A DNA stretch of 64,000 bases from the NCBI GenBank assembly GCA_964483315.1, contig CAZAAL010000002.1, forward strand, positions 72,689 through 136,688. Direction: 5' to 3'. The first letter of the stretch is position 1, and every line of letters begins with the position of its first letter. The position numbers and the translations under genes are program-made. The stretch comes from an uncultured Candidatus Saccharibacteria bacterium (lineage in GTDB: Bacteria; Patescibacteriota; Saccharimonadia; Saccharimonadales; UBA10212). The notes under the pieces were generated by a model. The model was not told where the DNA came from, did no database searches, and was given only the letters and a program-made list of their open reading frames with translations. Shown here in pieces: positions 1,676 through 63,487 of this stretch.

Positions 1676-1749
1676 ACCTCAATTTACCCGCTACACGGCT
1701 TTTTCATATATTTAAAGTTTTTTGCTACCTTGGACGGCAAGGTAGCACC

Positions 1750-1895
1750 AACCGCTGGGCTGCGTTTTTTCTTGATTGACTTTACTAGTAAAACCAAACA
1801 ACAGCCTGCGGAGCTCGCTTCGCTAAAGCAGTCCTCGTCTTTTAGTTGTTTGTTTTACATAAACTCATCATGAAAAATCCGATGCCCGAGACCCA
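1750..1895. repeat. Long imperfect-hairpin intergenic element, copy E1 (conserved core CTGCGGAGCTC...GTCCTCG)
   Basis: Arms AAACCAAACAAC (1791-1802) and GTTGTTTGTTTT (1845-1856) flank a core at 1806-1837. Tail CCGATGCCCGAGA at 1879-1891. Related copies lie at 54768-54902, 55502-55636 and 56029-56106. Confidence 0.5.
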
Positions 1896-1951
1896 AATTT
1901 TAAACACAAATACGTTTTCAAACAGATCTTTCAAAGTATAATAACTTAATA

Positions 1952-2614
1952 ATGTCGACAGAATATCAAACCCTAGAGTGGCAGGAGTCAATAAACGGAT
2001 TTGAGCTTAACTGCAAACTTGATATTGCGATTCATATAGCTGACAGTAAAATTATTTTTATGACTGTTCCAGGAGTTGACGGCAGCGTAGATGGCTATAA
2101 AAACAAATATAAAAAAATTGCCGAGGCTATCCAAAAAGATTTTAAAGTAGCAACTGTACGGATATCCAATCCATTTATTTCGTCACATCACTGGCAAAGT
2201 AATTTACGAAGCGCCTTGCATTTTATTGATTTAAATTCAAAAAGTATTTGCGGACATAAAGATTTTGAGCTAAGAATAATGGCTCATTCTGCCGGCGCTT
2301 CGGCGCTCGCCCAAATTGCCTGGGAGTACCCGTTTATTTCTAGAATATTATTAATTAACCCGGCGTCAAAAATCGGTATGGATAAAATCCAAAAGGGAGT
2401 AGATAAATTTGATGGTGAGCAAGTAACCTTATTTGTTGGCTCCAAAGATCCTTCATCCTCAGAATTTAGCCAGTTTAAAACCAGTAGTGAGCCATCAAAC
2501 TTAAAAATTGTCAGAATAGATGGTGCAAATCACCATTTTTCTGGCAAGCATTTTCCCGATTTCCTTAAAGCGCCCAGCAAATATTTATTCGCAAAATCTC
2601 CAAAACAGGGGTAG
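1952..2614 (+). CDS. Alpha/beta-hydrolase fold protein (putative)
   Basis: Nucleophile-elbow-like motif MAHSAGAS (G/A-H-S-x-G), a late conserved His (GANHHF), and ~220 aa size. Confidence 0.5.
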   Translation: MSTEYQTLEWQESINGFELNCKLDIAIHIADSKIIFMTVPGVDGSVDGYKNKYKKIAEAIQKDFKVATVRISNPFISSHHWQSNLRSALHFIDLNSKSICGHKDFELRIMAHSAGASALAQIAWEYPFISRILLINPASKIGMDKIQKGVDKFDGEQVTLFVGSKDPSSSEFSQFKTSSEPSNLKIVRIDGANHHFSGKHFPDFLKAPSKYLFAKSPKQG

Positions 2615-20113: not shown

Positions 20114-20115
20114 AA

Positions 20116-20142
20116 TTAGCACTCTCACTTGACGAGTGCCAA
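20116..20142. promoter_or_regulatory. CIRCE-type inverted repeat (HrcA operator) overlapping the clpC promoter
   Basis: TTAGCACTC-N9-GAGTGCCAA versus consensus TTAGCACTC-N9-GAGTGCTAA. TTGACG (20129-20134) plus an 18-bp spacer plus TACAAT (20153-20158). ATG 7 nt later. Confidence 0.75.
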
Positions 20143-20165
20143 CATAGTGATTTACAATAAAATGT

Positions 20166-34071: not shown

Positions 34072-34090
34072 CTAAAAACTCCTGTTTAAT

Positions 34091-34462
34091 TTGGTGGAGG
34101 AAAACGGGGCACGTTTGAACCGGGTGTCCGAGCTCGTGGCCCAGCTCCACAACAGGGGTGCTAGGAAGGCCTCCCCACCCGCCAAGCCCCGGGCCGGGGA
34201 CATCAAGGTGGCTGTGGTGCAGACATTGGAGCTGTCAGCCGAGCCGATGAGCCTCCGAGATGTCCACGTGGCCTGCGAAACGCTACTGGGGCGGCAAGTG
34301 CCGTACAACACGGTCAAGGACTGTGTTCATAAGCACTCTAGAGGCAAGGCACCGATCTTCAAGCGGGTTTGCAGAGGTTTGTATCAGGCTGATGCTGACA
34401 AACCTTCGACAGCCCTACTGCTTCAGAGGAGACGGCATCCAGGGTCAGGTGGCAACACCTAA
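34091..34462 (+). CDS. Hypothetical protein in the GC-rich block (possibly 5'-truncated; winged-helix-like C-terminus)
   Basis: TTG start right at the composition junction. The ORF is followed by two hairpins: GGCAACACC/GGTGTTGCC and CCAGG/CCTGG. Confidence 0.35.
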   Translation: MVEENGARLNRVSELVAQLHNRGARKASPPAKPRAGDIKVAVVQTLELSAEPMSLRDVHVACETLLGRQVPYNTVKDCVHKHSRGKAPIFKRVCRGLYQADADKPSTALLLQRRRHPGSGGNT

Positions 34463-34551
34463 GAATACGAACTTGTTCATATACTCAGGTGTTGCCCCAG
34501 GATTAACGCACCTGGGTGTTACAGACCTTGCGGTCTTGCGGCCCGTTAGGG

Positions 34552-34953
34552 CTATTCCTCTTCTTCTCCGGCCATCTCTTCACTGGCGAAGTACCCCATC
34601 TCACCAAGATGCAGTGAAACAGAGAACGACACAACAGTGAGCTTCTCAGGACGTCGGCTGAACCGGATCGTCTCTTCGATTGCCGTAGCAATCGCTTCGG
34701 CCAGTTCGTCCGACTGCTTGACACGCTCCTCGTCGGCGTGAGCCAGGATGATCACCTGAATGTCGTGGATCAAACTGTCCCACTTGCGTGCCTGAAGGAA
34801 CATGAACGAGAAGTCGTTCTGCGTCAGAGGGCGATGTTCCACACTCAGAAAGACCGCGAGTGGTCCCCTCAGACGCTTGCGAAGGCTGCCGAGGAAGAAG
34901 CCACCGTCAAGCTTTGCAACCTCTTTGGTGTGCTGCACGATGACGTGTGGCAT
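34552..34953 (-). CDS. Tautomerase-superfamily protein, 5-carboxymethyl-2-hydroxymuconate isomerase-like (tentative)
   Basis: N-terminus MPHVIVQHT resembles CHMI MPHFIVECS (catalytic Pro1). ~130 aa. A 1-nt overlap couples it to the upstream ORF. Confidence 0.4.
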   Translation of the reverse strand: MPHVIVQHTKEVAKLDGGFFLGSLRKRLRGPLAVFLSVEHRPLTQNDFSFMFLQARKWDSLIHDIQVIILAHADEERVKQSDELAEAIATAIEETIRFSRRPEKLTVVSFSVSLHLGEMGYFASEEMAGEEEE

Positions 34954-35447
34954 CAGATACCACCGCGACCATGCTCCAGCACAGCGAGCATTGCTCGGAT
35001 GCGGCGATCTGTGAGATCGTCCTCGGGCCCGCTGTCGACGAGGATGGCATGGCCATCCGGGAAAAGGAGTCCGAAGACTTCTCCGCCTGGATCGCGGTCG
35101 TAGCGCTTCCGCTCGAGAACGACGGCTTCGAACATCTTGCAGTGAGGTCTCTCGCGGAACGAATCACCTACCTCGCCGATGCCCATATCGCCGGTCTCCC
35201 AGTCGTCGATGGTGGTAACACCACCCTCGACGTTGAAGAGCCGGAGCATGCACCAGAGAGGTTTCTCGCCCTCATCAGGCTCCTCACCAGTGAGGATGAG
35301 CAGCTGGCCAGACTTGATCGAGCTGTACTCGCCGTCGAACCTGCAGAGGTCGTTGTTCATCTGGAGGGCGAGTCTAATCTCGGCCTCAGTCAGATGCATG
35401 TTCCCTGCCAGTTCCGCGGGATGATACTGAGCAGTGCCCACAGCCAC
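34953..35447 (-). CDS. Hypothetical protein in the GC-rich block (164 aa; alternative GTG start at 35441)
   Basis: GTG start(s) preceded by GGAAGGAG. Coupled to the downstream tautomerase-like gene. Confidence 0.5.
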   Translation of the reverse strand: MAVGTAQYHPAELAGNMHLTEAEIRLALQMNNDLCRFDGEYSSIKSGQLLILTGEEPDEGEKPLWCMLRLFNVEGGVTTIDDWETGDMGIGEVGDSFRERPHCKMFEAVVLERKRYDRDPGGEVFGLLFPDGHAILVDSGPEDDLTDRRIRAMLAVLEHGRGGI

Positions 35448-35618
35448 TCCTTCCAGCGATCTTGACTAGAAATAAAAAGGACGTTCGGAAAGCCTCTGGC
35501 TCTCCCAGAGGCCCTCAACAAACAGGCTTACTTTATCATAATTTGTCTGTTTAGACAACCGTTGTTACTTCATCAACGCAACAAAACGAACATTGAATCA
35601 TCGACCTTTTAATAACAG

Positions 35619-35656: not shown

Positions 35657-35741
35657 TGGTGGGCGAGAAAGGACTTGAACCTTCACGTCTTGCGACACTA
35701 GTTCCTAAGACTAGCGTGTCTACCAATTCCACCACTCGCCC
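35657..35741 (-). tRNA. tRNA-Leu (anticodon UAG), type II with long variable arm, CCA encoded
   Basis: Folded by hand. Acceptor GGGCGAG/CTCGCCC. D stem GTG/CAC. Anticodon stem CTAGT/ACTAG with loop CTTAGGA. Variable arm GTC-GCAA-GAC. T arm GAAGG-TTCAAGT-CCTTT. Discriminator A then CCA. Confidence 0.9.
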
Positions 35742-38473: not shown

Positions 38474-38920
38474 ATGAAGGTTTACTTTGCCGGTTCGATA
38501 AGGGGTGGTAGAAACGATCAACCAATTTATAACGAACTCATTGAGCATATTAAAAGTCGTGGAGTTGATGTGCTTTGCGAACACGTCGGGTACAAAGAAT
38601 TAACCGATCAAGGTCAAAACCAAGATCCAAAATTCATTCATGACAGAGATATAGGCTGGATCGACGAAGTATCTGCCGTAATCGCAAAGGTTACAAACCC
38701 AAGTCTCGGCGTAGGTTACGAAATTAGGTATGCAATTGATGGCTATAAACCAGTGCTAGCTTTATTTGCTGGCCAATCCGATAAAAAGTTATCAGCAATG
38801 ATAGAAGGCTCGAGAGCACAGGTTTTCGAGTATGAAAGAACTGCTGGGGGATTAGTTCTTGCTAAAACCGCCATTACCGAATTTTTACACAACTGTGAAT
38901 ACAAAGATTTGAGAAATTAG
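38474..38920 (+). CDS. 2'-deoxynucleoside 5'-phosphate N-hydrolase (DNPH1/Rcl-like, nucleoside 2-deoxyribosyltransferase fold)
   Basis: MKVYFAGSIRGGRNDQPIYNELIEHIKSRG...LCEHV parallels DNPH1 YFCGSIRGGREDRTLY...LTEHV. Confidence 0.7.
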   Translation: MKVYFAGSIRGGRNDQPIYNELIEHIKSRGVDVLCEHVGYKELTDQGQNQDPKFIHDRDIGWIDEVSAVIAKVTNPSLGVGYEIRYAIDGYKPVLALFAGQSDKKLSAMIEGSRAQVFEYERTAGGLVLAKTAITEFLHNCEYKDLRN

Positions 38921-38943
38921 CACTCTAGCTTGACGAGTGCCAA
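38917..38943. promoter_or_regulatory. CIRCE-type inverted repeat (HrcA operator) overlapping the clpP promoter
   Basis: TTAGCACTC-N9-GAGTGCCAA. TTGACG (38930-38935) plus an 18-bp spacer plus TAAAAT (38954-38959). ATG 6 nt later. The left arm overlaps the stop codon of the upstream gene. Confidence 0.75.
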
Positions 38944-38965
38944 TTGTTTGTTCTAAAATAATTAC

Positions 38966-51030: not shown

Positions 51031-51471
51031 ATGCCAGATCAAAGCCTTGAACACGGGGTGAGGAATATCCCGATAGGTTTAGAGTTGTTAAATGTTCTAG
51101 CAAACCGTAGATCAGCCTTAAAGAATGTCGAAAATGTATCCAAATGGGTACCAAATTCAATGACTGAATATGAAATCAAAGTATTTAGTCAGCGCGTACG
51201 AGCTGATTTTGCATATAGCCCAAATTCACCAGACCATTTAATTGTTCTAAACGAAAGTTTGGCAGACGTTAAAGCTCAAAAAGTAGTCCGAAACCTCGGT
51301 TCTATTTGTATCAGAGTGGGTGACTTTACTACCGCAGATTCATGCTTAAGGACACTAGACGGCATGGACTTAACCTTAACGCCTGCCTTTGGGGTGTATT
51401 TTGCAAGTTTAATCAGTCAAAAAGCTAGAGTTGAGTTGTTAAGGCGTGAGTTAGAAAGTTCTTTAAGATAG
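51031..51471 (+). CDS. Hypothetical protein (146 aa) coupled to fusA
   Basis: The ATG lies 2 nt after the fusA stop. No motif recognised. Confidence 0.55.
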   Translation: MPDQSLEHGVRNIPIGLELLNVLANRRSALKNVENVSKWVPNSMTEYEIKVFSQRVRADFAYSPNSPDHLIVLNESLADVKAQKVVRNLGSICIRVGDFTTADSCLRTLDGMDLTLTPAFGVYFASLISQKARVELLRRELESSLR

Positions 51472-51487
51472 GTATACTATAAATGTT

Positions 51488-51775
51488 ATGTCAGTAGAGC
51501 AAAATATCAATCCATTTATGCAAAGAGTTTCTATGGGCATCATTAATGAGGAACCCTTAATCAACGGATTAGTTCATCTTGTTCCAGAAGTATGCCGACC
51601 AACCTTTACAAGCGAGATATCTGGCAAGCCAATGATTGGTTGCTTAAAGATGACTGCAATTATCGGTAAAACAGCACTTGAGGTCGATACTGGATTGTAT
51701 TCACCTGAAGAGGCTCTAAGAGTCACAAAAAAACTCAATACTTGTGACAAGTGCCCGCTAAAAACCTTCGAGTAG
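51488..51775 (+). CDS. Hypothetical protein (95 aa)
   Basis: Clean ORF in the same orientation. C-terminal CDKC pair. Confidence 0.5.
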   Translation: MSVEQNINPFMQRVSMGIINEEPLINGLVHLVPEVCRPTFTSEISGKPMIGCLKMTAIIGKTALEVDTGLYSPEEALRVTKKLNTCDKCPLKTFE

Positions 51776-51798
51776 TAAACTGATATAATATCCACAAA

Positions 51799-52713
51799 AT
51801 GAGCAATCAAGCCGAGGTCGAAAAAATAGCCCATGTGTTTCCGGGTCAAGGTAGCCAATATGTTGGAATGGGAAAAGAATTATTTAAAAAATATGATTCT
51901 GCTAGAACGGTTTTTGCTACAGCAGAGGACGTGCTTGGTGTGCCTGTTAAAAAATGGTGTTTTGAAGGGCCCCAAGATTTACAAAACGATACACGCATAA
52001 CCCAACCAGCAATTTTTGTTACTAGTATTGCGCACTATATGGCACTTATGGATCACGGCTTTGAGCCAGATATTGTTGCTGGGCATAGCTTAGGGGAATA
52101 TTCAGCGTTAGTTGCTTCTGGAACAACATCATTTGAAGATGGGTTAAGATTAGTTGATTCTAGAGCCAAATTCATGGCTGAGGCTGGCCAGAAAAACCCA
52201 GGTGCAATGGCTGCGGTTCAAAATATAGCAATTGATAGCTTGACTCGAATTTGTAGGTCTACTGGTGCCTACATTGCAAACTACAATACGCCTAAACAAA
52301 CTGTAATTTCTGGTGCTAAAAATGCAATTTCGGCAACCGTTGAGTACGTACAGTTAAATCAAAATCTTAAGGCTGTAGCAAAGCGCCTACCAATAAGCAT
52401 TGCGGCCCATTCACCCCTTATGCAAGATGCATCAGATAAGTTAAAGACGGTAGTTGCTAAAACAAATATGCGAATCCCATCTATAAATATAATCTCTAAT
52501 TCAACAGCAGAGCTTTTTGCCGGTCCGGACGATATTCGTCAAAGCCTTCCAGATCAGCTCACAAAAGGTGTTCTTTGGTGGCAGACAATTGAAAAAATGC
52601 TTTCTATGGGGGTGGTTGAAATCAAAGAAGTTGGACCGAAAAATGTTTTGTCAAAAATGATAGGCAGGGCGCTTGCTGGAAGCTCAGTTAAAATTACGGC
52701 CGTAGACACTTAA
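51799..52713 (+). CDS. fabD: Malonyl-CoA:ACP transacylase
   Basis: FPGQGSQYVGMG, active-site GHSLGEYSALVASG, AAHSPLM. Confidence 0.85.
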   Translation: MSNQAEVEKIAHVFPGQGSQYVGMGKELFKKYDSARTVFATAEDVLGVPVKKWCFEGPQDLQNDTRITQPAIFVTSIAHYMALMDHGFEPDIVAGHSLGEYSALVASGTTSFEDGLRLVDSRAKFMAEAGQKNPGAMAAVQNIAIDSLTRICRSTGAYIANYNTPKQTVISGAKNAISATVEYVQLNQNLKAVAKRLPISIAAHSPLMQDASDKLKTVVAKTNMRIPSINIISNSTAELFAGPDDIRQSLPDQLTKGVLWWQTIEKMLSMGVVEIKEVGPKNVLSKMIGRALAGSSVKITAVDT

Positions 52714-54011: not shown

Positions 54012-54317
54012 ATGACTAAAGCAAGAGTAGAACTAGGCGAAGTAGTAGCTACCGATAAGGGCGCTATTCTAAGGCCTGTGACCGAAGCTAACTTTAGGAT
54101 CTCAGGAGTTTTATCAGTAGATTCAGATTCAAGCAATGTCGTTTTTAGTTGGCTGGAAGGGTCTCAAAATGATTTGATAGCTCAACGCGCTATCGTATGT
54201 GAGTCTCACAAGGTTGCATATACAACTGTTGAAGAGGACGAGCTTGCAAAGCAAGCCCTAGTCTCAGTTTTAAGACCACTTGTTAATGCATCATATGATG
54301 AATTGGTTGGGGTATAA
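54012..54317 (+). CDS. Hypothetical protein (101 aa) wedged between tuf and rpsJ
   Basis: The ATG lies 2 nt after the tuf stop. Its stop lies 1 nt before the rpsJ ATG. Confidence 0.55.
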
Positions 54318-54318: not shown

Positions 54319-54687
54319 ATGGCTGAAGATAAGAAAACTCCAACACCAAAAGCCGGCGCACAAGCACCGGTTGAGGCTCCTCTAAAGCAGAGGATTCGCA
54401 TTAGGCTAAAAGCCTATGACCACAAAGTCATAGATCAATCGGCTAAGCAAATTGTTGATACTGCTTTAAGAACTGGCGCAAACATTGCTGGGCCAATCCC
54501 TTTGCCAACTCGAAAAAGTACATTTACAGTTGTAAAAAGCCCGCATGTTTACAAAAAAGGTCGCGAGCAGTTTGAAATGCGCGTTCACAAACGCTTAATT
54601 GATATTACCGAGCCAACACCTAAGACGATTGATAGTCTTATGAACCTAAGCCTACCGGCTGGGTGTGATGCCGAAATAAAAATGTAA
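54319..54687 (+). CDS. rpsJ: 30S ribosomal protein S10
   Basis: [26 protein letters not shown]...GPIPLPT...[28 protein letters not shown]. Start chosen at MAEDKK; the track start at 54280 overlaps the upstream ORF. Confidence 0.93.
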
Positions 54688-54690
54688 AAA

Positions 54691-54712
54691 AGCGCCGAAA
54701 GGCGCTTTTTTT
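54691..54712 (+). terminator. Rho-independent terminator after rpsJ
   Basis: AGCGCC-GAAA-GGCGCT followed by T7. Confidence 0.85.
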
Positions 54713-54902
54713 ATAAGCTTCCAGCTTAACCGGCCAACTTTGTACCGACAAAGTTGGACAAAACTCCCAGCACAGAACTCAAAAACCATATTTAATTTAT
54801 TTCATTCACAATAAGTGAATCTGCGGAGCTCACTATCGTTCAAGCAAGTCCTCGATTCTGCTTATTGCTCATTCATAAATTAATCTGTTTCCCGAGAGTG
54901 CT
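54692..54902 (+). repeat. Direct repeat copy A (terminator plus hairpin element E2)
   Basis: Near-identical to 55402-55636, apart from one substitution, a 24-bp indel and a diverged last ~12 bp. Confidence 0.9.
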
Positions 54903-54976
54903 GGATAAGATGTCTATTGACAAACAGGTCGATTAGGAGTATAATATTGTATTAAATTAACGGGGGAGGCTTGATT

Positions 54977-55396
54977 ATGGCGTTCGATCAAACTGAATGC
55001 ATGTATCGCGTGTCGGCAAAGGCACTTATTAAAAACTCACAAGGTGAGTTATTTTTTGTAGATGAAAACGAAGGGCACGGACTAAATTTACCGGGTGGTG
55101 GTATCGATAATGGCGAAACACCCCAAGACACTTTAAAACGTGAAATTCACGAAGAGGTTGGCCTTGATGTCATATCCGTAGCAGATCATCCAAGGTTTGC
55201 ATGGCTAATTAACAGTGAAGTCGTATGGTTAGTTTACGAAACAGAAGTTTCTGACACGGCCGAAGCTAAGACTACACATCATGTTGCAGGGTTTGAATGG
55301 GCAAAGCCAGGCTCAGAAGATATAAAAAGCAAATGGGGTTATGTATCTAAGCTTTTCATGCAAGATTTAATCGATTATGTTAAAATCAATAGTTAA
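54977..55396 (+). CDS. NUDIX hydrolase
   Basis: Perfect Nudix box GGIDNGETPQDTLKREIHEEVGL (Gx5Ex7REUxEExGU). SD GGGGGAGG 7 nt upstream. Own GGAGTATAAT promoter. Confidence 0.85.
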   Translation: MAFDQTECMYRVSAKALIKNSQGELFFVDENEGHGLNLPGGGIDNGETPQDTLKREIHEEVGLDVISVADHPRFAWLINSEVVWLVYETEVSDTAEAKTTHHVAGFEWAKPGSEDIKSKWGYVSKLFMQDLIDYVKINS

Positions 55397-55400
55397 TTAA

Positions 55401-55422
55401 GGCGCCGAAAGGCGCTTTTTTT
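55401..55422 (+). terminator. Rho-independent terminator after the NUDIX gene (duplicate of the rpsJ terminator)
   Basis: GGCGCC-GAAA-GGCGCT followed by T7. Confidence 0.85.
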
Positions 55423-55636
55423 ATAAGCTTTCAGCTTAACCGGCCAAATTGTCTTACGCAGACGGCGCCAACTTTGTACCGACAAAGTTGGACAAAACTC
55501 CCAGCACAGAACTCAAAAACCATATTTAATTTATTTCATTCACAATAAGTGAATCTGCGGAGCTCACTATCGTTCAAGCAAGTCCTCGATTCTGCTTATT
55601 GCTCATTCATAAATTAATCTGTTTTTGATAGTGCTT
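55402..55636 (+). repeat. Direct repeat copy B (terminator plus hairpin element E2)
   Basis: See copy A. It carries an extra ATTGTCTTACGCAGACGGCGCCAA after CCGGCCAA. Confidence 0.9.
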
Positions 55637-55760
55637 TTGTAGTCTGAATTGGTATGTATTCAGAGTCTGAATCAGATACTACTTTTACAGAAAAGAATAC
55701 AACATTAATTATTTTTTATAGAAGATGTATACTAAAGTAAATATTAAGTGAGGTAAAATT

Positions 55761-56009
55761 TTGAAAAGGGAAAACGCTTTCCCTGAATGGATAGAGGGAG
55801 ACAAGGGCTTAACCTTATTTTTAGGTATAGCTTGTGTTGTAGCGATAACTATTATTTTGAATGCAGTCTATGTTGCTCATAAAAACAAAAAAAATGTAGA
55901 TTGGGGCGATGTTATTATATCGGCCTGGGACAGTCTAGGGATAACCGTCATACTTTGCATAATTGTAACTATGCTTATATTTGGGATAAAATATTTTATA
56001 TATAACTAG
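55761..56009 (+). CDS. Hypothetical small 2-TM membrane protein (TTG start)
   Basis: SD GTGAGGT ~7 nt upstream. Two hydrophobic helices. Confidence 0.4.
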   Translation: MKRENAFPEWIEGDKGLTLFLGIACVVAITIILNAVYVAHKNKKNVDWGDVIISAWDSLGITVILCIIVTMLIFGIKYFIYN

Positions 56010-56028
56010 TTAGTAGTCTTGCGAAACT

Positions 56029-56106
56029 GGTTTCACTCAAACAGCCCTCGCCCTAGAAGTTGTTTTGTTGGCGTGAAACCCTTATGAATAAGCCGATGCC
56101 CAGATC
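56029..56106. repeat. Shortened copy (E3) of the hairpin element family
   Basis: GGTTTCAC...GTGAAACC outer stem. CAAACAGCC-CTCG-..AGTTGTTTTG aligns to E1 with the core deleted. Tail CCGATGCCCAGA (56093-56104). Confidence 0.4.
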
Positions 56107-56131
56107 AGAACTTATCAGGAAGTTTGAAACC

Positions 56132-56923
56132 CTAATTAAATTCACGTTTCAATACTGCCAGTACATCGCCAAATGTTTCTCTAATATTACCTGTAGCGAA
56201 TTGGACATAAGTGATTCCTTGAATATTTGAAGGGATTTTTGTATCCTTCTCAATCAAAACTATTGCCTTAGAAAAGCCTAATTTTCCTTGGAATAACCCC
56301 ATTTCGTGTATAACGTTTTGTCTAGCTAGTAAACTACCGTCCTCGAGTTTATCCTCCCCGGTCATTACTAAAATTGCAAAGGATGCACCTTGAACCATTC
56401 TTTCTAGAACATCCCTGACAGCATGCCCTGTCCTTGAACCTACTTCATACGCATCGATTTTATAATTATGCTGGTCAGCAAGATGATCTTTTAATTTCCT
56501 CCACTGTTCGTTTTGGCCATGACCAATAAAAATAGTTGGTGGTTCAACGGGGGGTGTATTTTCTTTATAAATAGAACTCTTCTTAGCTTGCTCAAAAATC
56601 TCAAAAACCTCTTCAATTGTTTGCCTTTGCGGGGCCCCAATACCAATTTCGGAAGTATTACCTCTAAAATTTAGCTCTAAAGAGCCCTTGCCGTGACTAA
56701 AACTTTTACTAAAATGGGCAAACTTACAATTTTTCCTATAGTCAGAAAAAAACTCCGTATCATTATCGTGTTGCCAGGAATTATTATCTTGTATGTCAAT
56801 CGTAAGATAACTTGAAGTATTTTTTTTATGTTCCCGAGGAAGTTTTTTAACTAGTGTTTTTTCAGCTAAAGCTATAGTCTCAGGATTAAACTTTGTGGTT
56901 AAATAGATCCTTGTATTTTTCAT
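56132..56923 (-). CDS. TIR-like domain protein of the CAP12/PycTIR type (COG4271-like) with an uncharacterised ~125-aa N-terminal domain
   Basis: The C-terminal half carries the family signature: TIFIGHGQNEQW, SFAILVMTGED, ARQNVIHEMGLFQGKLG, PSNIQGITYV. Own GGAGTATACT promoter. Confidence 0.75.
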   Translation of the reverse strand: MKNTRIYLTTKFNPETIALAEKTLVKKLPREHKKNTSSYLTIDIQDNNSWQHDNDTEFFSDYRKNCKFAHFSKSFSHGKGSLELNFRGNTSEIGIGAPQRQTIEEVFEIFEQAKKSSIYKENTPPVEPPTIFIGHGQNEQWRKLKDHLADQHNYKIDAYEVGSRTGHAVRDVLERMVQGASFAILVMTGEDKLEDGSLLARQNVIHEMGLFQGKLGFSKAIVLIEKDTKIPSNIQGITYVQFATGNIRETFGDVLAVLKREFN

Positions 56924-56985
56924 AAACTCATTCTTTAACTTCAGTATACTCCTTCAGAGGGAATAAAAAAATGGAGCTTTTCGTG

Positions 56986-57219
56986 CTAGGTTCGGTTGGG
57001 GTTGAGGAAGTTGGATAAAACTTCTTCTGGGTCTAGGCCGGCTTGAGTTAGGTAGCTAAAGGCAGTTTCAAAAGCATCATCAAAAGGCATGCGGGCAATT
57101 TCATCGCATGTTTCAGGGTCAAACCCAAGCTCTTCGCCAACAGATCTTAACTCATCAGCGATTTTCTGGCTTTCGGTTTTAGCCTCTGGTCCTTGTTCGA
57201 TGTGAAGATGATCTTCCAT
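56986..57219 (-). CDS. Hypothetical acidic protein (77 aa), leaderless unit
   Basis: ATG at 57219 lies 6 nt downstream of TATAAT (rc of 57226-57231). The track TTG start at 57225 abuts the -10 box. Confidence 0.45.
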   Translation of the reverse strand: MEDHLHIEQGPEAKTESQKIADELRSVGEELGFDPETCDEIARMPFDDAFETAFSYLTQAGLDPEEVLSNFLNPNRT

Positions 57220-57265
57220 ACACAAATTATACGCTTTTTGAGCAAATCCTACATTTTGTAGTGTT

Positions 57266-57559
57266 TTAGGGTGCGTCGGGTTGGTTTAAGGCGTTTGGCG
57301 GGAGTCCATAATCCAGTGGTAGTCCATTTTTGGCATTTAATTCGATTCTAGCTATTGTAGCAATTGGTCCATCTGCACTCGGTACACCAGAAACAGGGCT
57401 TGGGCGGTCATTAAGTGGCCTAAATGAAAGTGTGTCTAGATGCCAATCTGGATTAGTCTTTCGAGGGAAAATTGCCCTAACTAACCCTTTAATCGAGATT
57501 CTGTTAGATGGGTCATGAGACTTTGATGCCTCAGGCTCAAAATCAAACATTTCACTCAT
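57266..57559 (-). CDS. Hypothetical Pro-rich protein (97 aa), leaderless unit
   Basis: ATG 6 nt downstream of TATAAT (rc of 57566-57571). Confidence 0.45.
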   Translation of the reverse strand: MSEMFDFEPEASKSHDPSNRISIKGLVRAIFPRKTNPDWHLDTLSFRPLNDRPSPVSGVPSADGPIATIARIELNAKNGLPLDYGLPPNALNQPDAP

Positions 57560-57588
57560 AAATTTATTATACGCCCTGGTGGATTGAT

Positions 57589-58032
57589 TTAGGAAGTTGG
57601 GGTTGAGTCCAGCTCTTGCGCGACTCTTTCTTCAAATGCTTTTTGATCATACGGTATGGGTCTATCAAATAAGTAGGCTCTAGTTGATGACGGATACACG
57701 GCGTTGCCTATATAGACCCATGGCTGTTCGTGATTGTCACTTGGCATGGTCACGTCGTTTAAAATTGATCCGTTGTTTGTGAAATCGTTGTTTTTTAAAT
57801 GCCAATATACGACCCTTTTTGGTGAATTGGGCATACTAAAGGTCATTTCTGGTTCGTTACCGAGCAAAAATAGTGGGAAAGGCCACTTATCATAGTTTGG
57901 GCCGTCGGCATATTCTTCCCAATCCACAAAGCCAGCAATGCTAATTTTGCCAAGATCAAGTATGGTTTTTTTGTATTCAGGACCTAAGTCTAAAAACACT
58001 TCGGTCGGTAATTGATAATCTATTTCACGCAT
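57589..58032 (-). CDS. Hypothetical protein (147 aa), leaderless unit
   Basis: ATG at 58032 lies 6 nt downstream of TATAAT (rc of 58039-58044). Confidence 0.5.
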   Translation of the reverse strand: MREIDYQLPTEVFLDLGPEYKKTILDLGKISIAGFVDWEEYADGPNYDKWPFPLFLLGNEPEMTFSMPNSPKRVVYWHLKNNDFTNNGSILNDVTMPSDNHEQPWVYIGNAVYPSSTRAYLFDRPIPYDQKAFEERVAQELDSTPTS

Positions 58033-58101
58033 ATCCAAATTATATCCTTACCTAATCCAACTGCATATTGCTTGTGTATTATTTGATGTCGGGGTATTTG
58101 T

Positions 58102-58602
58102 TTATGCTCGGTTCAATGGTGACAGCTCTAGCTTGCCAGCTTTGCCTAAAATTTCTGCAATATCTGAAAATTCTAAATATCGTGTGCCATCACCAAAATA
58201 CACTAGTGGAATGTTATCTACTTGGTATCTAAGCATTCTTTCGGACTTTAGGATAAGAGACTCACCAGGATTTATTGGGTATCTCTTAAGTGGCCTTACT
58301 CTTATGTAGTCATAAGCACCTTTGTCAAAAACACTTGCCACTACTGCTTCTTCATCTTCAGGAACGACCACCCTTAGATCTTTGCCATTAGTTGGTGCAA
58401 GAAAAATAGCATTACTTAAACAAAGAGTTGCTTGTCGGTGTTCAGTTTTGCGCATGTCTTGCCGATTTGCACTATCGGAGTTTCGAGAGTTATACCATGA
58501 ATTGATTAAAAATGAAGCTTCATCGACATATCTTTGCAAATTGAGCATTGACTCAGATTTTTCATCCAAACTTTCCTGGCTACCATGACTTCTTTCACTC
58601 AT
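58102..58602 (-). CDS. Hypothetical protein (166 aa), leaderless unit
   Basis: ATG 7 nt downstream of TATAAT (rc of 58610-58615). Confidence 0.5.
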   Translation of the reverse strand: MSERSHGSQESLDEKSESMLNLQRYVDEASFLINSWYNSRNSDSANRQDMRKTEHRQATLCLSNAIFLAPTNGKDLRVVVPEDEEAVVASVFDKGAYDYIRVRPLKRYPINPGESLILKSERMLRYQVDNIPLVYFGDGTRYLEFSDIAEILGKAGKLELSPLNRA

Positions 58603-58660
58603 AGTTTTAATTATATCTTCGTTAACTAATCAACAAAATTGCTTGTGGTATTTTGATATG

Positions 58661-58713
58661 AAAATGCGCCCCATCTCAGGGGCGCTAGGACGGGAGCCAG
58701 ATTGCTCCCGTCC
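58661..58713 (-). terminator. Tandem GC-rich hairpin terminators after the GC-rich membrane-protein gene
   Basis: GGACGGGAGC-N6-GCTCCCGTCC (58688-58713) and GCGCCCC-N6-GGGGCGC (58666-58685), followed on the minus strand by ATTTT. Confidence 0.6.
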
Positions 58714-58726
58714 TTATTGAGGGTTT

Positions 58727-59158
58727 TTACCCCCAGTCTGTCCACTCGAGGATCCACCACCCGATGGCGCAGATGAGTATCCCGGTAATGCCGATGAACT
58801 CCGTCACCATCCATGCAGTCGTGTTAGGCTCTTGGGCCTCATTTGCAGTGAAGCTGAGAGCGAGCATGCTGTTCAATCCGCTCCAGAAGATCGTCATGCC
58901 GATGAAGAACCCCCAGGCTTTAAGGGTGCTCACCGTAGCCACACCTTGCCTGTATTTGACGTGGTAGGTGTTGGACTCCCATTCCAGGGAGTGATACCCG
59001 ACCCGGGTCTCTCTCGGCTGACTATAGCTGTCCCAGCGAGCCTTATAGCGTCGCTTCAGCTTGATGCTGTAGTAGAGCCAGGCGATGAGCGCGAACAGCG
59101 GTGGGAACACCAACGCCACACCCACGACTACAGCGTAAAAGATAGCTACCGTCTGCAT
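58727..59158 (-). CDS. GC-rich 144-aa membrane protein (3-4 TM), foreign composition
   Basis: Start MQTVAIFYAVVVGVALVF with SD AAGGAG 6 nt upstream. ~57% GC in a ~33% GC neighbourhood. The track start at 59215 is unlikely. Confidence 0.6.
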   Translation of the reverse strand: MQTVAIFYAVVVGVALVFPPLFALIAWLYYSIKLKRRYKARWDSYSQPRETRVGYHSLEWESNTYHVKYRQGVATVSTLKAWGFFIGMTIFWSGLNSMLALSFTANEAQEPNTTAWMVTEFIGITGILICAIGWWILEWTDWG

Positions 59159-59280
59159 CTCGACTCCTTTTGTGGTGCATCTTTGACATTGCCAAAAACT
59201 AGAAATATTGTGCACTAAAAAATATAATTTGCAAGCTCAAGCATCTCTTCAGATATAAAAGAATACTCGTTATGGTTTTA

Positions 59281-59820
59281 CTAAAGTGGTTTGGCGTGGT
59301 TGATAAGTTTGTGTCTTATGTCTAGAAAACTTGAAATGTCATCTGAGTCTTTATAGTAAAAGGTTTGAGTTTGCATTTTACCCATATCGTCATAACTATT
59401 TATAGCTACGGTTGTTTCATCAAAAATCATTAAGTCGCCCTTTGGTAATTTAATGTCATCTACATCTAATTTGTTTATTATGTAAACTTTCTCTTTGCAG
59501 AGTGGAATATTTATAACTTTATAATGCTCAAATTCCCACTCAAGATATTTGGTTAATGGATAGTCAACTACGTGTAGTCTGATAAGTTCCACGCCGTTAT
59601 CGCTTAAGCTTTGACACGACTTTATCCAGTCTTTACTGACCAGATCTTTCATTAATTTTCTACTTAATGATTTATCACCTTTAAGCCAAGCATCTAATGA
59701 TGGCCCTGTATCTTCGCCTGAGTAATCTTGGAGAACCTCAAGCTTAAACCACTCACTTTTTAAAGAATCCCAATGTTTTTCAAACTCTTTAAAGCTTTCA
59801 TCTCGACCAAAAACCTTCAT
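59281..59820 (-). CDS. Hypothetical protein (179 aa); vague resemblance to DUF6879-type proteins, unverified
   Basis: ATG 6 nt downstream of TATGCT (rc of 59827-59832). Trp/Glu-rich segments WFKLEVLQDY and YLEWEFEHY. Confidence 0.5.
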   Translation of the reverse strand: MKVFGRDESFKEFEKHWDSLKSEWFKLEVLQDYSGEDTGPSLDAWLKGDKSLSRKLMKDLVSKDWIKSCQSLSDNGVELIRLHVVDYPLTKYLEWEFEHYKVINIPLCKEKVYIINKLDVDDIKLPKGDLMIFDETTVAINSYDDMGKMQTQTFYYKDSDDISSFLDIRHKLINHAKPL

Positions 59821-59872
59821 AACAAAAGCATACTCCTAAAAATGGCGATGTTATTGGGCGATTTGTAAAGTT

Positions 59873-60175
59873 CTAATAACCCAATGTACTTAATTTATCC
59901 GCATTTTCATGTAATAGCGCTGATTTTTTTACAAGTTTACGCCTTTTTAGTTCAGCGGCTACAGTTGCGCTTATAGCAAGCCCGAACCCTGCTATATTAA
60001 ACTGTAGTTGCTCTACTGGTGGCAACGTATTGATGTTATCGGCAAAATTTGCAAGAGCCGTAGCCCCAATAAGTGAAACTCCCACTACATTACGAATATC
60101 GCGGTATCCTTTGGCCTCTTCGCAAGCTTCTTCTGCCTGAAACCTTCTGAATTCTGAAAGCGTTGAATAATCCAT
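59873..60175 (-). CDS. Hypothetical 2-TM protein (100 aa), leaderless unit
   Basis: ATG 8 nt downstream of GGGGTATAAT (rc of 60184-60193). Confidence 0.45.
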   Translation of the reverse strand: MDYSTLSEFRRFQAEEACEEAKGYRDIRNVVGVSLIGATALANFADNINTLPPVEQLQFNIAGFGLAISATVAAELKRRKLVKKSALLHENADKLSTLGY

Positions 60176-60220
60176 TAAGCAAGATTATACCCCCACTAGT
60201 AACAAATATTTAATTTTAGT

Positions 60221-60478
60221 TTATTTTTTTATAGATTTGTAACTAAAAATTAACACTATCATAACGCTTATAAGCCAAGTAAAAGTCGTTAACGCTAAAA
60301 CAAACGGCAGGCCAATAGGTGCACCTACAATACAGTTCGACTCATCAACTTGCGACTGTGAGTAGTTGTCGGGGCATTGTTCGGGCTGGTTTAATAAAAT
60401 AACCAATAATAACAAGTACAAAATTGTTAGGATAAATAATACCAGCTTTGTTTTTGTGCCAAATTTTTTTGCAACCAT
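60221..60478 (-). CDS. Hypothetical small membrane protein (85 aa)
   Basis: Two hydrophobic helices flank a Cys-containing loop. Confidence 0.45.
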   Translation of the reverse strand: MVAKKFGTKTKLVLFILTILYLLLLVILLNQPEQCPDNYSQSQVDESNCIVGAPIGLPFVLALTTFTWLISVMIVLIFSYKSIKK

Positions 60479-60554
60479 TTAGTTATTTTAGCAGGAATAA
60501 GTTAGCATTATCTAAATTGATAAAATAATACACTTATGCTATAATATATCTGTA

Positions 60555-61130
60555 ATGAGGCGGAGTTTGCGAGTACATAGCAAATTTTTATTTGCATTGC
60601 TTAGCGGGATAATATTATTTATCCCGGCTTATATTTGGATTCCGGTGTTTGCAGGCGACGCAAGCCAGCCAAAAGTTGCTGGCTACTTTGCAGTTGCACC
60701 ATCTACCGAACTTGCACAAAGCAAAACTAACATCGATTTAAGCGAACTTTTAACCCAAACCAACCAAGAACGAGCTAGTGTGGGCGTTGGACCACTCTCT
60801 CCAGATCAGAACCTTTACTTATCGGCTAACGCTAAGTGTAATGATATGGTTTTAAATCATTATTGGGGTCATTATTCACCTAGTGGCCAAAGTGGGCTTA
60901 GTTTTATTGAGTCAATATATCCAAAGTATGCAAAAATTAGCGAAAATTTAGCTGCTGGGTTCAATAACTCAACAGAAGTTGTGGCCGGTTGGATGCAAAG
61001 TCCAAGCCATAAAAAAGCTCTTCTAGATAGTTCGTACCAATATGTTGGTTTTAGCGTTTGCGAGGGTGATATTGGCGATGGCAATGGTAGTAGCCTAGCT
61101 GTGGTTCAACACTTTATGGCGGTAAGATAA
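60555..61130 (+). CDS. Secreted CAP/SCP (PR-1, YkwD-like) domain protein
   Basis: Signal anchor, then NQERASVGVGPL, HYWGHYSP, ENLAAGF, VAGWMQSPSHKKALL, YVGFSV. Confidence 0.75.
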   Translation: MRRSLRVHSKFLFALLSGIILFIPAYIWIPVFAGDASQPKVAGYFAVAPSTELAQSKTNIDLSELLTQTNQERASVGVGPLSPDQNLYLSANAKCNDMVLNHYWGHYSPSGQSGLSFIESIYPKYAKISENLAAGFNNSTEVVAGWMQSPSHKKALLDSSYQYVGFSVCEGDIGDGNGSSLAVVQHFMAVR

Positions 61131-61342
61131 TGCTAGAAACTAAAGAAAAACAAATTGCCTATGCGCTTCGCGGTAAAGAAATTGCTGAGCTTGAAACTAG
61201 TTTATGGAATAACTTAACGGCAGAACAAAGAACTCTTAGAGCATATTTAAGTTGTCATAAGGTAGCTGTATACTGTGTTGATACAGACGAGGTAGATAAG
61301 GCCGAACAGATATTAAATGATAATCTAACGCTAGAGGGATAA
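61130..61342 (+). CDS. Hypothetical protein (70 aa)
   Basis: TAATG overlap with the upstream CAP gene. Confidence 0.4.
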   Translation: MLETKEKQIAYALRGKEIAELETSLWNNLTAEQRTLRAYLSCHKVAVYCVDTDEVDKAEQILNDNLTLEG

Positions 61343-61349
61343 GTTAATA

Positions 61350-61703
61350 ATGTCGATAGAATCGCACGCAATTAAAGCCAATTTTGCTACTGTAACGAAA
61401 AACTTACGTCGAGCTATTCCAGTAGGCTGTGAGGGGTGTAAAACGCCTAATAAAGTAGCAGAGGAACTTCCGAAAAGGGCCGCAACATTAGGGATCGAAC
61501 TACAATATTTAATTGAACCTTCAGCAGAAGTATTCGGAGAATGTCAGGACGGCCAAATTGAACTTGATTACCCAGAATGCCAAGCTAGATGCTCAAACCC
61601 TAATCTAGACGTCGACAGCCCTGTATTATTAAGTGAACAAATGATTGTAAGAATTTTAGATAAAGCTGATTGGGCACAAAATCACGGTAAAGGAGACATG
61701 TAG
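61350..61703 (+). CDS. Hypothetical Cys-containing protein (117 aa)
   Basis: CEGC, ECQDG and ECQARC motifs. Tightly packed with its neighbours. Confidence 0.45.
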   Translation: MSIESHAIKANFATVTKNLRRAIPVGCEGCKTPNKVAEELPKRAATLGIELQYLIEPSAEVFGECQDGQIELDYPECQARCSNPNLDVDSPVLLSEQMIVRILDKADWAQNHGKGDM

Positions 61704-62009
61704 ATGGGTCAATTATCGGAACAAGGCAAAATGACAGACGAGATTATGCGTGATGTGCAAGAGCGTTGCAAAGAATGCCCACAAGCACGGCTTACGGCTT
61801 TGTTTATGGCCGAAAAAGTTTTAGCAGGTGAGGTAACACTTGAGCAATGCATAGAAACACACGCCCGAGAAATTGCTGATAATTGTAATGGCGGGAAAAA
61901 ACTGCAAGACGGCAGTACAAAGTGTATTAAAGGTTTAAAAACTGGTCCTCTGCCGCCACCTCATATAAGGGATGAATTAAACATATGGGAGGATACGACT
62001 TATGCGTAG
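61704..62009 (+). CDS. Hypothetical Cys-containing protein (101 aa)
   Basis: The ATG directly abuts the previous stop. CKEC and other Cys residues. Confidence 0.45.
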   Translation: MGQLSEQGKMTDEIMRDVQERCKECPQARLTALFMAEKVLAGEVTLEQCIETHAREIADNCNGGKKLQDGSTKCIKGLKTGPLPPPHIRDELNIWEDTTYA

Positions 62010-62391
62010 CGGACATGGCTGGAAGTGCGGAAATTTCGAAGACATCCCACCACTTAAAGACGGTTGGACACCTGGTTGGCACTCTGTGCGTCATCACATG
62101 GGCGTCACTGCTTTTGGGATTAATGCCGTAACTGCCCAAAAAGCTGGCGATTTGATTATAAAAGAACATGATGAGTCAGGCTCTAACCAGCAAGAGGTAT
62201 TTTTTGTGCATAGTGGTGAATGTGAATTCATGATTGATGGCGAAAAATGTATTGCCAAGGCTGGTACATTTGTTGCCATTGAGCCCGAATGCAAAAGAAG
62301 CGTGACGGCAATACAGGCTGGGAGCCAGTTAATCGTGATAGGCGCACCCAAAGACAAACAATATCAAGTTCCCAAGTGGGATACGCTTTAA
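62002..62391 (+). CDS. Cupin-domain protein
   Basis: EVFFVHSGECEFMIDGEKCIAKAGTFVAIEP is a cupin beta-barrel motif. 8-nt overlap with the upstream ORF. Confidence 0.6.
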   Translation: MRSGHGWKCGNFEDIPPLKDGWTPGWHSVRHHMGVTAFGINAVTAQKAGDLIIKEHDESGSNQQEVFFVHSGECEFMIDGEKCIAKAGTFVAIEPECKRSVTAIQAGSQLIVIGAPKDKQYQVPKWDTL

Positions 62392-62412
62392 ATATTTGCT
62401 ACAATAACGCTA

Positions 62413-62694
62413 ATGGCTAAAAAAAGGCGGGTTGGCGCCAAGACTACTCAAAAAGCAGAACTGGATAGTGTCTATTTACTAAAATTAGCGATTTATATGG
62501 TTTTAGGCTCGTTTTGGGTAAGAATCAACTTAGACTCGGGATTTGAGCTACCACTGCCAGTTGGTGCACTGATTGGCTTAATTTATGCAAGTCATGATCA
62601 TTTTGCGATAGACAGAAAAATTGAGTACGCCATACTTTTAGTGGCAATGTTTATTGGTTTTTGGCTGCCAATTGGCATGACAATTTCATTGTAG
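62413..62694 (+). CDS. Hypothetical small 3-TM membrane protein (93 aa)
   Basis: A basic N-terminus followed by three hydrophobic helices. Confidence 0.45.
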   Translation: MAKKRRVGAKTTQKAELDSVYLLKLAIYMVLGSFWVRINLDSGFELPLPVGALIGLIYASHDHFAIDRKIEYAILLVAMFIGFWLPIGMTISL

Positions 62695-62707
62695 AATTAT
62701 CAACATA

Positions 62708-62737
62708 TTGACAGATGTCAGCTTAACGTGGTAATCT
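62708..62737 (+). promoter_or_regulatory. Candidate promoter re-starting the S10 operon at rplC
   Basis: TTGACA (62708-62713), an 18-bp spacer, TG-G-TAATCT (62729-62737). A ~140-nt leader contains hairpin AATGCGT/ACGCATT. Confidence 0.4.
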
Positions 62738-62878
62738 GTTATTTGTATTAATTAATTCGGTGTACTTGGATCATCAGTAAGTCGCCATCTAACAGAGGTA
62801 GAAACTGCTTTTGACCAAGCTTTTTTAATGCGTGTCGCCTATCAATACGCATTAATTACCACTAAACAGCGAGGCTCA

Positions 62879-63487
62879 GTGAAAGCTCTATTAACTAGAA
62901 AACTTGGTATGACGACTATCATTAGTGACAACGGCACTGCAAGTGCTGTAACTTTGCTTTCTGCTGATCCAATTGTTGTTACTCAAGTTAAATCTACTGA
63001 TGTTGATGGTTACAACGCGATTCAAGTAGGCGCTGGAGAAGATAAAAAACCATCCAAAAGTCATGCTGGGCATGTCAAAGCTTCGGGCTCTGTTCCAAAA
63101 GTCCTTAAAGAGTTTAGGGTTGACGAACTTGGCGAGTTAAAAGTTGGCGACAAAATTACAGCTGAAAATTTTGAACTTGGTGATAGTGTCCATGTAACAG
63201 CTATATCCAAGGGTAAAGGCTGGGCCGGCACAATTAAACGACATAATTTTCATCGAGGCCGAAAAACCCATGGGGGTCAAAGTTACAGACGCCCTGGCTC
63301 TATCGGTTCGATGTATCCACAGCGTATATTCCCCGGTAAAAAGATGGCCGGCCAAATGGGCTACGAGCAAGTTACAGTCAAAAATCTTAAAATAGCCTTA
63401 ATTGACAACGAACTTAGCGTAATTGGTGTTTTTGGCGCTGTGCCTGGGCCTAAAAAAGGCTTAGTTGTTTTAAAGGGAGCTAAGTAA
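62879..63487 (+). CDS. rplC: 50S ribosomal protein L3
   Basis: GTG start giving VKALLTRKLGMTTI (the canonical L3 N-terminus), with SD GAGGCT upstream. KGKGWAGTIKRHNF. The track start at 62828 adds a non-homologous extension. Confidence 0.9.
   Translation: MKALLTRKLGMTTIISDNGTASAVTLLSADPIVVTQVKSTDVDGYNAIQVGAGEDKKPSKSHAGHVKASGSVPKVLKEFRVDELGELKVGDKITAENFELGDSVHVTAISKGKGWAGTIKRHNFHRGRKTHGGQSYRRPGSIGSMYPQRIFPGKKMAGQMGYEQVTVKNLKIALIDNELSVIGVFGAVPGPKKGLVVLKGAK

Follow-up and report, generated by a model that had tools for sequence, protein, structure and literature searches.

A NUDIX hydrolase gene between near-identical copies of an intergenic palindromic module in the S10 operon of a Saccharimonadales bacterium

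Results and Discussion

The NUDIX gene and the repeats flanking it

The stretch of DNA analyzed here, in the following called the window, comprises 64,000 nucleotides of contig CAZAAL010000002.1 (positions 72,689 to 136,688, forward strand; assembly GCA_964483315.1) from an uncultured Candidatus Saccharibacteria bacterium of the order Saccharimonadales. It covers a housekeeping region with rpoB/C, rpsL, rpsG, fusA, tuf and rpsJ, and its EF-Tu groups with proteins labelled Candidatus Saccharimonadales. Immediately downstream of rpsJ, a gene for a NUDIX hydrolase is bracketed by two direct repeats of approximately 210 to 240 bp, each of which includes a copy of the rpsJ terminator. This arrangement had been proposed from inspection of the sequence (the original prediction) and was confirmed by a repeat finder, by BLAST and by alignment. 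The repeats, copy A (E2A) and copy B (E2B), belong to a family of modules termed E, and the local order is rpsJ, E2A with a promoter, the NUDIX gene, E2B, a gene for an 82-aa protein, a relic of a third copy (E3) and, on the opposite strand, a gene for a protein with a TIR domain. The coordinates are compiled in Table 1.

The core of the repeats is a block of 158 nt (54733-54890 and 55467-55624) that is 100% identical in both copies. A second segment, 54689-54740 versus 55399-55450, was reported by the repeat finder with 94% identity, and a BLAST search of the window with copy B recovered copy A over 226 aligned positions (88.5% identity including the indel, E-value 3e-86). The base-by-base alignment revealed two substitutions, A/G at 54691/55401 and C/T at 54721/55431, as well as a 24-nt insertion in copy B (55443-55466), whose exact placement is ambiguous owing to a GCCAA direct repeat at its edges. 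One substitution and the insertion had already been described; the other substitution is located just outside the start that had been assigned to the repeat. At their 3' ends the copies diverge over the last ~14 nt (A, CCCGAGAGTGCTGG; B, TTTGATAGTGCTTT). The last ~12 bp of copy B had been considered degraded, but this view could not be maintained. The 3' base of copy B, TTTTTGA, pairs with TCAAAAA, and its TTTTT forms Watson-Crick pairs with the AAAAA of the 5' arm, while copy A has CCC at this position, which yields G-U pairs with the same arm on the minus strand only. The perfectly identical tract of 158 nt is thus flanked by two pairing-competent variants of the hairpin base. Since the variant end of copy B has kept its ability to pair, two older hairpin-base variants existed, a finding that speaks against one simple duplication event.

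The limits of the repeats are sharp and match the structural limits of the module, from the start of the terminator to the base of the long hairpin. Both copies start exactly at the shared terminator, two to four nucleotides past a stop codon. The terminator, GCGCCGAAAGGCGC followed by T7, was detected at two sites in the window (54692 and 55402) and nowhere else, and the same applies to the linker ATAAGCTTYCAGCTTAACCGG (54713 and 55423). Each copy possesses the features of a Rho-independent terminator, a GCGCC-GAAA-GGCGC stem-loop and a run of seven T residues. A terminator scan flagged copy B on the plus strand and copy A on the minus strand, where a run of A residues precedes the stem, so that the latter was read as bidirectional.

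Between the two copies there are only a promoter and the NUDIX open reading frame (ORF). The Nudix box of the encoded protein, GGIDNGETPQDTLKREIHEEVGL (residues 41-63), had been called perfect; it is indeed an exact match to G-x5-E-x7-REUxEExGU, and the assignment is supported by PF00293. Beyond that, the protein gave generic Nudix matches in NCBIfam and a weak match to PADLOC PDC-S07, without an assignment at the equivalog level. With a GC content of 0.40 and a GC content at third codon positions of 0.32, the gene resembles the rest of the genome. The search for homologues yielded just two distant ones (45-52% identity), both of them with other neighbors and without E, and exact look-ups of the NUDIX and S10 proteins did not retrieve any other assembly.

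A family of intergenic palindromic modules

By their sequence, the repeats can be regarded as copies of a lineage-specific family of intergenic palindromic modules. E is composed of a Rho-independent terminator, a perfect short hairpin (P1) of 9-10 bp and an imperfect long hairpin of approximately 140 nt with a conserved apex. Full copies carry, in addition, a conserved 3' block and an outward-facing promoter, predicted to be of the sigma-70 type. The 64-kb window contains no fewer than four copies (E1, E2A, E2B and the relic E3), all of which are intergenic. A search for further copies of the element beside other genes had been recommended, and within the window it was successful, yielding E1 and E3.

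E1 is a diverged full copy that lies directly upstream of an unrelated 220-aa ORF (1952-2614) and near an AlwI restriction-modification pair. It shares colinear homology over ~250 nt with copy A, the promoter included. The apical core, 32-34 nt long, recurs in E1 at 1806-1837 (85% over 34 nt, E-value 0.003, BLAST), and 88 of the 121 alignable positions of the long hairpin are identical in E1 and E2A. A short hairpin is present in both copies, though with a different sequence. The 3' block, referred to as block 2, can be written as a degenerate 16-nt pattern, AATCYGWTKCCCGAGA, that matches E1 and E2A exactly but was derived from these two; with three mismatches allowed, about two chance matches are expected, and what supports block 2 is that it lies colinear with the rest of the blocks. 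The promoter block, CAAACAGRTC..AGTATAAT, was found at two sites only, in E1 and in copy A. Since E1 and copy A are colinear through this block, the NUDIX promoter is the right-hand part of the module. Hence the original description, according to which only a promoter and the NUDIX gene separate the repeats, was accurate regarding the content of the interval, but the promoter is not a separate item. E2B lacks both block 2 and the promoter block. The decayed copy E3 scored 15.8 bits (E-value 0.0038) in an nhmmer search with a profile made of E1 and E2A, compared to a top score of 11.7 bits in 60 dinucleotide-shuffled windows.

The genes next to E1 are encoded on the minus strand at 2643-6470, immediately downstream of the ORF that E1 would drive. 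They specify an AlwI-family restriction endonuclease and a fused D12-class adenine methyltransferase, and their GC content (32-36%) is below the average of the window.

Table 1. Positions of the module copies, their parts and the genes at the locus (coordinates refer to the window)
Feature	Position	Strand	Remarks	Evidence
E1, diverged full copy	1724..1957	+	P1 1724-1746; long hairpin 1756-1888; core 1806-1837; block 2 1876-1891; promoter block 1919-1942	
rpsJ (ribosomal protein S10)	54319..54687	+	gene upstream of copy A	PF00338, 9.3e-36
Accessory island, rpsJ to rplC	54688..62827		8.1 kb; NUDIX, 82-aa gene, TIR/Cap12-like effector, DUF6879, CAP, cupin, unknowns	Pfam, PADLOC
E2A (copy A)	54689..54904	+	terminator 54692-54712; P1 (short perfect hairpin) 54734-57; long hairpin 54767-54904	repeat finder, BLAST
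Apical core of the long hairpin, CTGCGGAGCTCACTATCGTTCAAGCAAGTCCTCG	54821..54854	+	pattern found three times in the window, 0 expected	
Block 2, AATCTGTTTCCCGAGA	54882..54897	+	3' base of the hairpin; common to E1 and E2A	alignment
NUDIX promoter (predicted), sigma-70-type, TTGACA-17-TATAAT	54917..54945	+	homologous to 1919-1942	12/12 consensus match
NUDIX hydrolase gene	54977..55396	+	139 aa	PF00293, 9.1e-15
E2B (copy B)	55399..55636	+	terminator 55402-55422; insertion 55443-55466; P1 55468-55491; long hairpin 55503-55635; core 55555-55588	
82-aa predicted membrane protein gene	55761..56009	+	second gene bounded by E copies	weak sub-threshold Pfam matches only
E3, decayed E copy	56006..56113	+	directly after the 82-aa gene; core and block 2 recognizable	

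E was not detected in any of the sequences searched outside the window. A scan of the GTDB representative genomes for exact occurrences of the core pattern gave 53 matches, all of which were chance matches in high-GC coding DNA. The core was not found in JGI metagenome contigs and gave two chance matches in IMG/VR, BLAST searches against phage and plasmid collections did not detect E, and neither a tolerant regular expression nor a profile HMM identified it in 80 related Saccharimonadales rpsJ loci (~700 kb).

Dispersed intergenic palindromic repeats of bacteria include ERIC/IRU, Correia/NEMIS, BOX/RUP and REP/BIME. Like these, E is an imperfect intergenic palindrome of ~100-150 nt that occurs in several diverged copies per genome, and in this loose sense it has the properties of an intergenic palindromic repeat family. 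Repeats of the ERIC type can also carry or create promoters and terminators, and they are substrates for homologous recombination, duplication and deletion. By contrast, E combines four elements in a single module, namely a terminator, a short and a long hairpin, and a promoter. Conservation is highest at the apex and in the 3' block instead of the termini, neither target duplications nor a cognate transposase/RAYT gene were seen, and E has been encountered in just a single Saccharimonadales genome. On sequence grounds, E is a new, narrowly distributed member of this broad class.

Testing of the repeats with detectors of miniature inverted-repeat transposable elements (MITEs) had been suggested. 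Two copies of such a classical non-autonomous element could have integrated, each in an event of its own, to the left and to the right of a NUDIX gene that was already present, and the palindromic structure, the intergenic position and the number of copies in 64 kb would suit this explanation, as would the existence of other long-hairpin repeat families between ribosomal protein genes in a related genome. However, two independent insertions do not agree well with the observation that both copies begin 2-4 nt past a stop codon, exactly at the shared terminator. Conserved terminal inverted repeats are missing, the 5' hairpin bases of E1 and E2 being different, and target-site duplications were not recognized by inspection at E1, E2A and E2B, whose ends are ill-defined with four copies. 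Moreover, no gene for an integrase, transposase or reverse transcriptase emerged when nearly all ORFs of 90 aa or more in the window were scanned with Pfam. The MITE identity is therefore unproven and this origin of the arrangement is quite improbable.

The related genome mentioned above is represented by a Saccharimonadales contig (L067) that contains two other families of long hairpins, 100-150 nt in length, between ribosomal protein genes (3431-3562, 7059-7218, 9821-9979 and 10367-10513; also 4584-4684 and 6335-6435). Their stems are made up of short tandem units such as GGTTACA and each hairpin is located just upstream of the ribosome-binding site of the next gene. Intergenic repeats with long hairpins may be common in Saccharimonadales.

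Folding of the hairpins

Compared to dinucleotide-shuffled sequences, the long hairpins of E1, E2A and E2B, which are well preserved, form far more stable folds (z values from -3.8 to -6.6). For E2A, z was -4.0 on the plus and -6.6 on the minus strand, for E2B -4.4 and -6.2, respectively. The minus strand of E2 folds much better than the plus strand (-49.6 vs -33.5 kcal/mol), while the strands of E1 fold about equally well (-43.2 vs -39.4 kcal/mol). As the strand bias of E2 is absent in E1, any inference about the strand on which the structure acts is weak. In E3, the hairpin is lost and no significant fold was obtained. The covariance models of Rfam 15 identified only a tRNA-Leu and an S-adenosylmethionine (SAM) riboswitch in the window, the E regions giving chance-level matches to models that contain terminators. 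In a sequence-based alignment of E1 and E2, there were no pairs changed on both sides. Indels, though, put the MAFFT/RNAalifold alignment and the pair mapping out of structural register, for which reason compensatory changes are not claimed.

The stability of the folds raises the question of whether E is a structured non-coding RNA gene or a cis-acting RNA, for example a small RNA (sRNA) encoded on the minus strand or an RNase III processing or stability element, with copies homogenized by gene conversion and a NUDIX gene whose position is incidental. The very low z value of the E2 minus strand, the conservation of the apex between diverged copies and the bidirectional terminator of copy A are compatible with this idea, and the CCC/TTT difference at the hairpin base merely swaps G-U for A-U pairs on the minus strand and thus keeps the helix. 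On the other hand, neither strand has a promoter or terminator that is consistent across E1, E2A and E2B, a match to an Rfam family was not obtained, the strand preference is not common to E1 and the hairpin has disappeared from E3. Pairs changed on both sides are absent from the sequence-based alignment, and neither the ~700 kb from related Saccharimonadales nor the public collections searched contained anything similar. An RNA as the actual unit is consequently rather unlikely. A minus-strand sRNA was rejected since a consistent promoter or terminator is lacking and the strand bias of the fold is not shared by E1. Readings of the apex as a K-turn, a tRNA T-arm, a signal recognition particle RNA, a 6S RNA or an ssoA-type structure were also dismissed; by eye there was no consistent match and Rfam gave no support. 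The E hairpin is probably a terminator- or insulator-type structure or an RNA processing site and not the site of a recombinase.

The rpsJ-rplC spacer

In bacteria, the junction of rpsJ and rplC is normally tight and the S10 operon is compact. In the genome under study, rplC is located at 62828-63487 and thus separated from rpsJ by 8.1 kb. Among 44 related metagenomic loci in which both genes are present, the spacer measures 0.16-4.8 kb and has a varying content; the NUDIX gene described here occurs in none of the 44. Judging by the variable size and content of the spacer, the rpsJ-rplC site is a hotspot in Saccharimonadales. The closest relatives in the searched collections exhibit only 75-80% identity in tuf and fusA.

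Several observations were made on the content of this and neighboring spacers. One of the related loci harbors two other genes of the Nudix family, and in 28 of them a conserved membrane protein of ~93 aa is encoded just before rplC. In the island studied here, the minus-strand gene at 56132-56923 encodes a 263-aa protein with a TIR effector domain of the CAP12/Pycsar type (PF10137, 2e-26; PADLOC PDC-S35/PycTIR), beside which no cyclase gene is evident. Judged by these domain matches, the island with its TIR effector, the NUDIX gene (weak PDC-S07 match) and DUF6879 looks defence-related. The stretch at 58601-58750 is the strongest-folding 150-nt segment of the window (z about -5); here, perfect GC-rich hairpins that probably represent stacked terminators are clustered, flanked by two genes of the island on the minus strand. 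Non-ribosomal genes are also found between fusA and tuf (51031-52713; ORFs of 146 aa and 95 aa and a fabD-like acyltransferase gene), and the interval between tuf and rpsJ contains a 101-aa ORF (54012-54317) without a homologue among 5.8 billion proteins.

Comparison with integron cassettes

The alternation of short genes with hairpin-forming repeats is reminiscent of gene cassettes, and testing of the element with an attC model had been proposed. It is conceivable that E is the site of a dedicated site-specific system that recognizes hairpins, either similar to integrons or to clusters of attC sites lacking integrases (CALIN), or acting on single strands like HUH/Y1-type enzymes, and that the genes downstream of rpsJ form a cassette array produced by ordered insertion. 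Indeed, short genes and E copies alternate in an array-like manner and the newest-looking pair is nearest to rpsJ. The unit of ~734 bp has the size of a cassette and might be circularized, the hairpins are long and imperfect, and one strand of E2, the bottom strand, folds much better than the other. E1, too, is situated at the edge of an accessory block, beside restriction-modification genes.

In integrons, the R'' and R' boxes of attC pair at the base of the hairpin at a distance of 57-141 nt, and cassettes are usually promoterless and expressed from the promoter Pc. Boxes of the type RYYYAAC/GTTRRRY were confined to the surroundings of P1 in E2. Their span is too small in copy A (36 nt) and amounts to 60 nt in copy B solely owing to the 24-nt insert, and the boxes pair poorly with each other. 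E1 is devoid of such boxes and none are present at the base of the long hairpin. The conserved sequence of E is located at the apex of the hairpin instead of its base, and the two strands of E1 fold about equally well. Unlike a promoterless cassette, the NUDIX gene follows a strong terminator and has its own promoter, which is predicted to match the consensus at 12 of 12 positions. Furthermore, the flanks are near-identical over more than 200 nt, while attC sites are heterogeneous, and identity over the terminator plus 158 nt far exceeds what a site-specific crossover needs. Genes for tyrosine or serine recombinases, transposases or HUH enzymes are not present in the 64 kb, and the Pfam scans did not uncover an IntI/Phage_integrase gene. 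The repeats were thus not substantiated as attC sites, and there is only a slim chance that a dedicated hairpin-recognizing system has built this array. The more far-reaching speculation that an undescribed cassette-capture system of Patescibacteria recombines at the E hairpins, operates without an integron integrase by means of an enzyme encoded elsewhere in the genome and stacks promoter-bearing accessory and defence genes after rpsJ, is very unlikely.

Assembly of the locus

Direct repeats of this length might also be due to the assembly. In that case, the true chromosome would have the order rpsJ, E, 82-aa gene, and the NUDIX gene with a further E copy would stem from another locus, another strain or a circle of ~734 bp. 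The identical block of 158 nt is longer than the usual k-mers of assemblers and hard to span with short reads. Independent Logan contigs of run SRR14271336 are 100% identical to the window at both outer junctions, but the two contigs concerned end inside the repeats and do not cover a junction on the NUDIX side. The first one (with an identical S10) runs from tuf through rpsJ and ends at 54759, 27 nt into the shared block; the second covers the region between 58347 and 55546, with its end lying 79 nt inside copy B. The Logan protein set includes S10, the 101-aa ORF, the 82-aa ORF and the TIR protein but not the NUDIX protein. In addition, a third contig crosses the single-copy hairpin of E1 unbroken, from which it follows that a hairpin alone does not break that assembly.

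These data are balanced by the finding that the NUDIX, S10, EF-Tu, 82-aa and 101-aa proteins are all recorded on one 187-kb NCBI contig, presumably the source of the window; the locus is thus spanned by that assembly. Differences specific to each copy are present on both sides, and the Logan contigs do not end at strict branch positions for k = 31, so that the fragmentation (~2 kb) and low coverage of that assembly explain their ends equally well. Two copies, a mixed population or low coverage could each account for the Logan pattern, and it is doubtful that the arrangement results from misassembly or a population mixture.

Possible origin of the arrangement

Recombination at a hypervariable position of the S10 operon is the likely source of the NUDIX arrangement. 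As to the route, there is about an even chance that the gene was placed or kept between the E copies by homologous recombination of the RecA type, in which E would provide the portable homology. A first version assumes a circle or incoming DNA of ~734 bp composed of E, the promoter, the NUDIX gene and a terminator. It would cross over with a resident E just downstream of rpsJ, and this integration of the Campbell type would generate the order rpsJ-E-NUDIX-E. In a second, equivalent version, unequal exchange or gene conversion would have taken place between older E copies. The identical tract of 158 nt could be the mark of a recent exchange, and the diverged left and right edges would be the remains of two older E variants. 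The gene would thus have been gained, and not long ago. A recent event, by duplication or by insertion at the element, had been deduced earlier from the near-identity of the repeats. This remains plausible, but gene conversion would account for the mosaic pattern just as well as insertion.

Recombination via E shares with Campbell-type integration, as known from plasmids integrated by a single crossover and from the amplification and loss of segments between insertion sequences or rrn repeats, that a segment lies between direct repeats of shared homology and that the process is reversible. It differs in that the homology is an intergenic module of 0.2 kb instead of an insertion sequence, an rrn operon or a cloned fragment, and in that the circle is hypothetical. 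Regarding reversibility, it can soundly be inferred that the NUDIX gene may be lost by recombination between the direct repeats, as had been pointed out before; such a deletion would leave one hybrid E behind.

Natural competence and the integration of DNA through homologous recombination are known from Saccharibacteria (PMC10633639), which makes the proposed events plausible. The composition of the NUDIX gene, which is native-like, and the occurrence of its nearest homologues in unrelated contexts without E were counted in favor of homologous recombination. The same holds for the sharp limits of the repeats, the colinearity of E1 and E2A including the promoter, the stable folds, the E3 relic, the variable rpsJ-rplC gap and the lack of integrase, transposase and reverse transcriptase genes among the ORFs scanned in the window; recombination via E is the simplest account. 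With a third, decayed copy after the next gene, the locus resembles serial accretion in the rpsJ-rplC hotspot, and the E3 relic together with the hypervariable spacer suggests that the process has been repeated at this site.

Some points weigh against an origin by homologous recombination. One clean Campbell event between diverged copies does not predict 158 nt of 100% identity beside a 14-nt end with six differences, and an extra conversion step is needed. Only four E copies are known, all of them from one genome, and they may be mobile, selected or merely duplicated spacer DNA. The 158-nt repeat could have been mis-threaded by the assembler. An allele lacking NUDIX, an excised circle or an empty site did not turn up in the collections searched, in which there is no close relative.

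Other features of the window

Three further features of the window were noted. A segment of 1.4 kb (34050-35500) has a GC content of 55-65% in a genome of 41% GC and adjoins the tRNA-Leu gene (35657-35741, minus strand). It is strongly structured, has only overlapping ORFs on both strands and did not match Pfam or Rfam; it could be a foreign insert or an unrecognized large RNA. Just upstream of clpB (20166) and clpP (38966), a 48-nt repeat with 79% identity is located (20113-20160 and 38914-38961) that contains TTAGCACTC-N9-GAGTGCCAA, which matches the consensus of the CIRCE/HrcA operator. The SAM riboswitch (15606-15710), which is just at the Rfam gathering score, precedes the S-adenosylmethionine synthetase gene (15755-16714) and is ordinary.

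Conclusions

With one genome and four copies, the NUDIX/E locus is a local curiosity and not a new kind of system; for now it is a local observation of moderate interest that provides a lead on gene flux in Patescibacteria. These bacteria have small, streamlined genomes, and the gain and loss of their accessory genes are poorly known. The locus is a concrete example of a short intergenic module that would contribute 0.2 kb of portable homology along with a promoter and a terminator, at a place where a defence-flavored island has grown inside the S10 operon. The long hairpins would be candidates for signals of RNA processing or insulation. If E copies mark many accessory genes throughout the genome, this would point to a simple, recombination-based route of gene flux in a naturally competent lineage.

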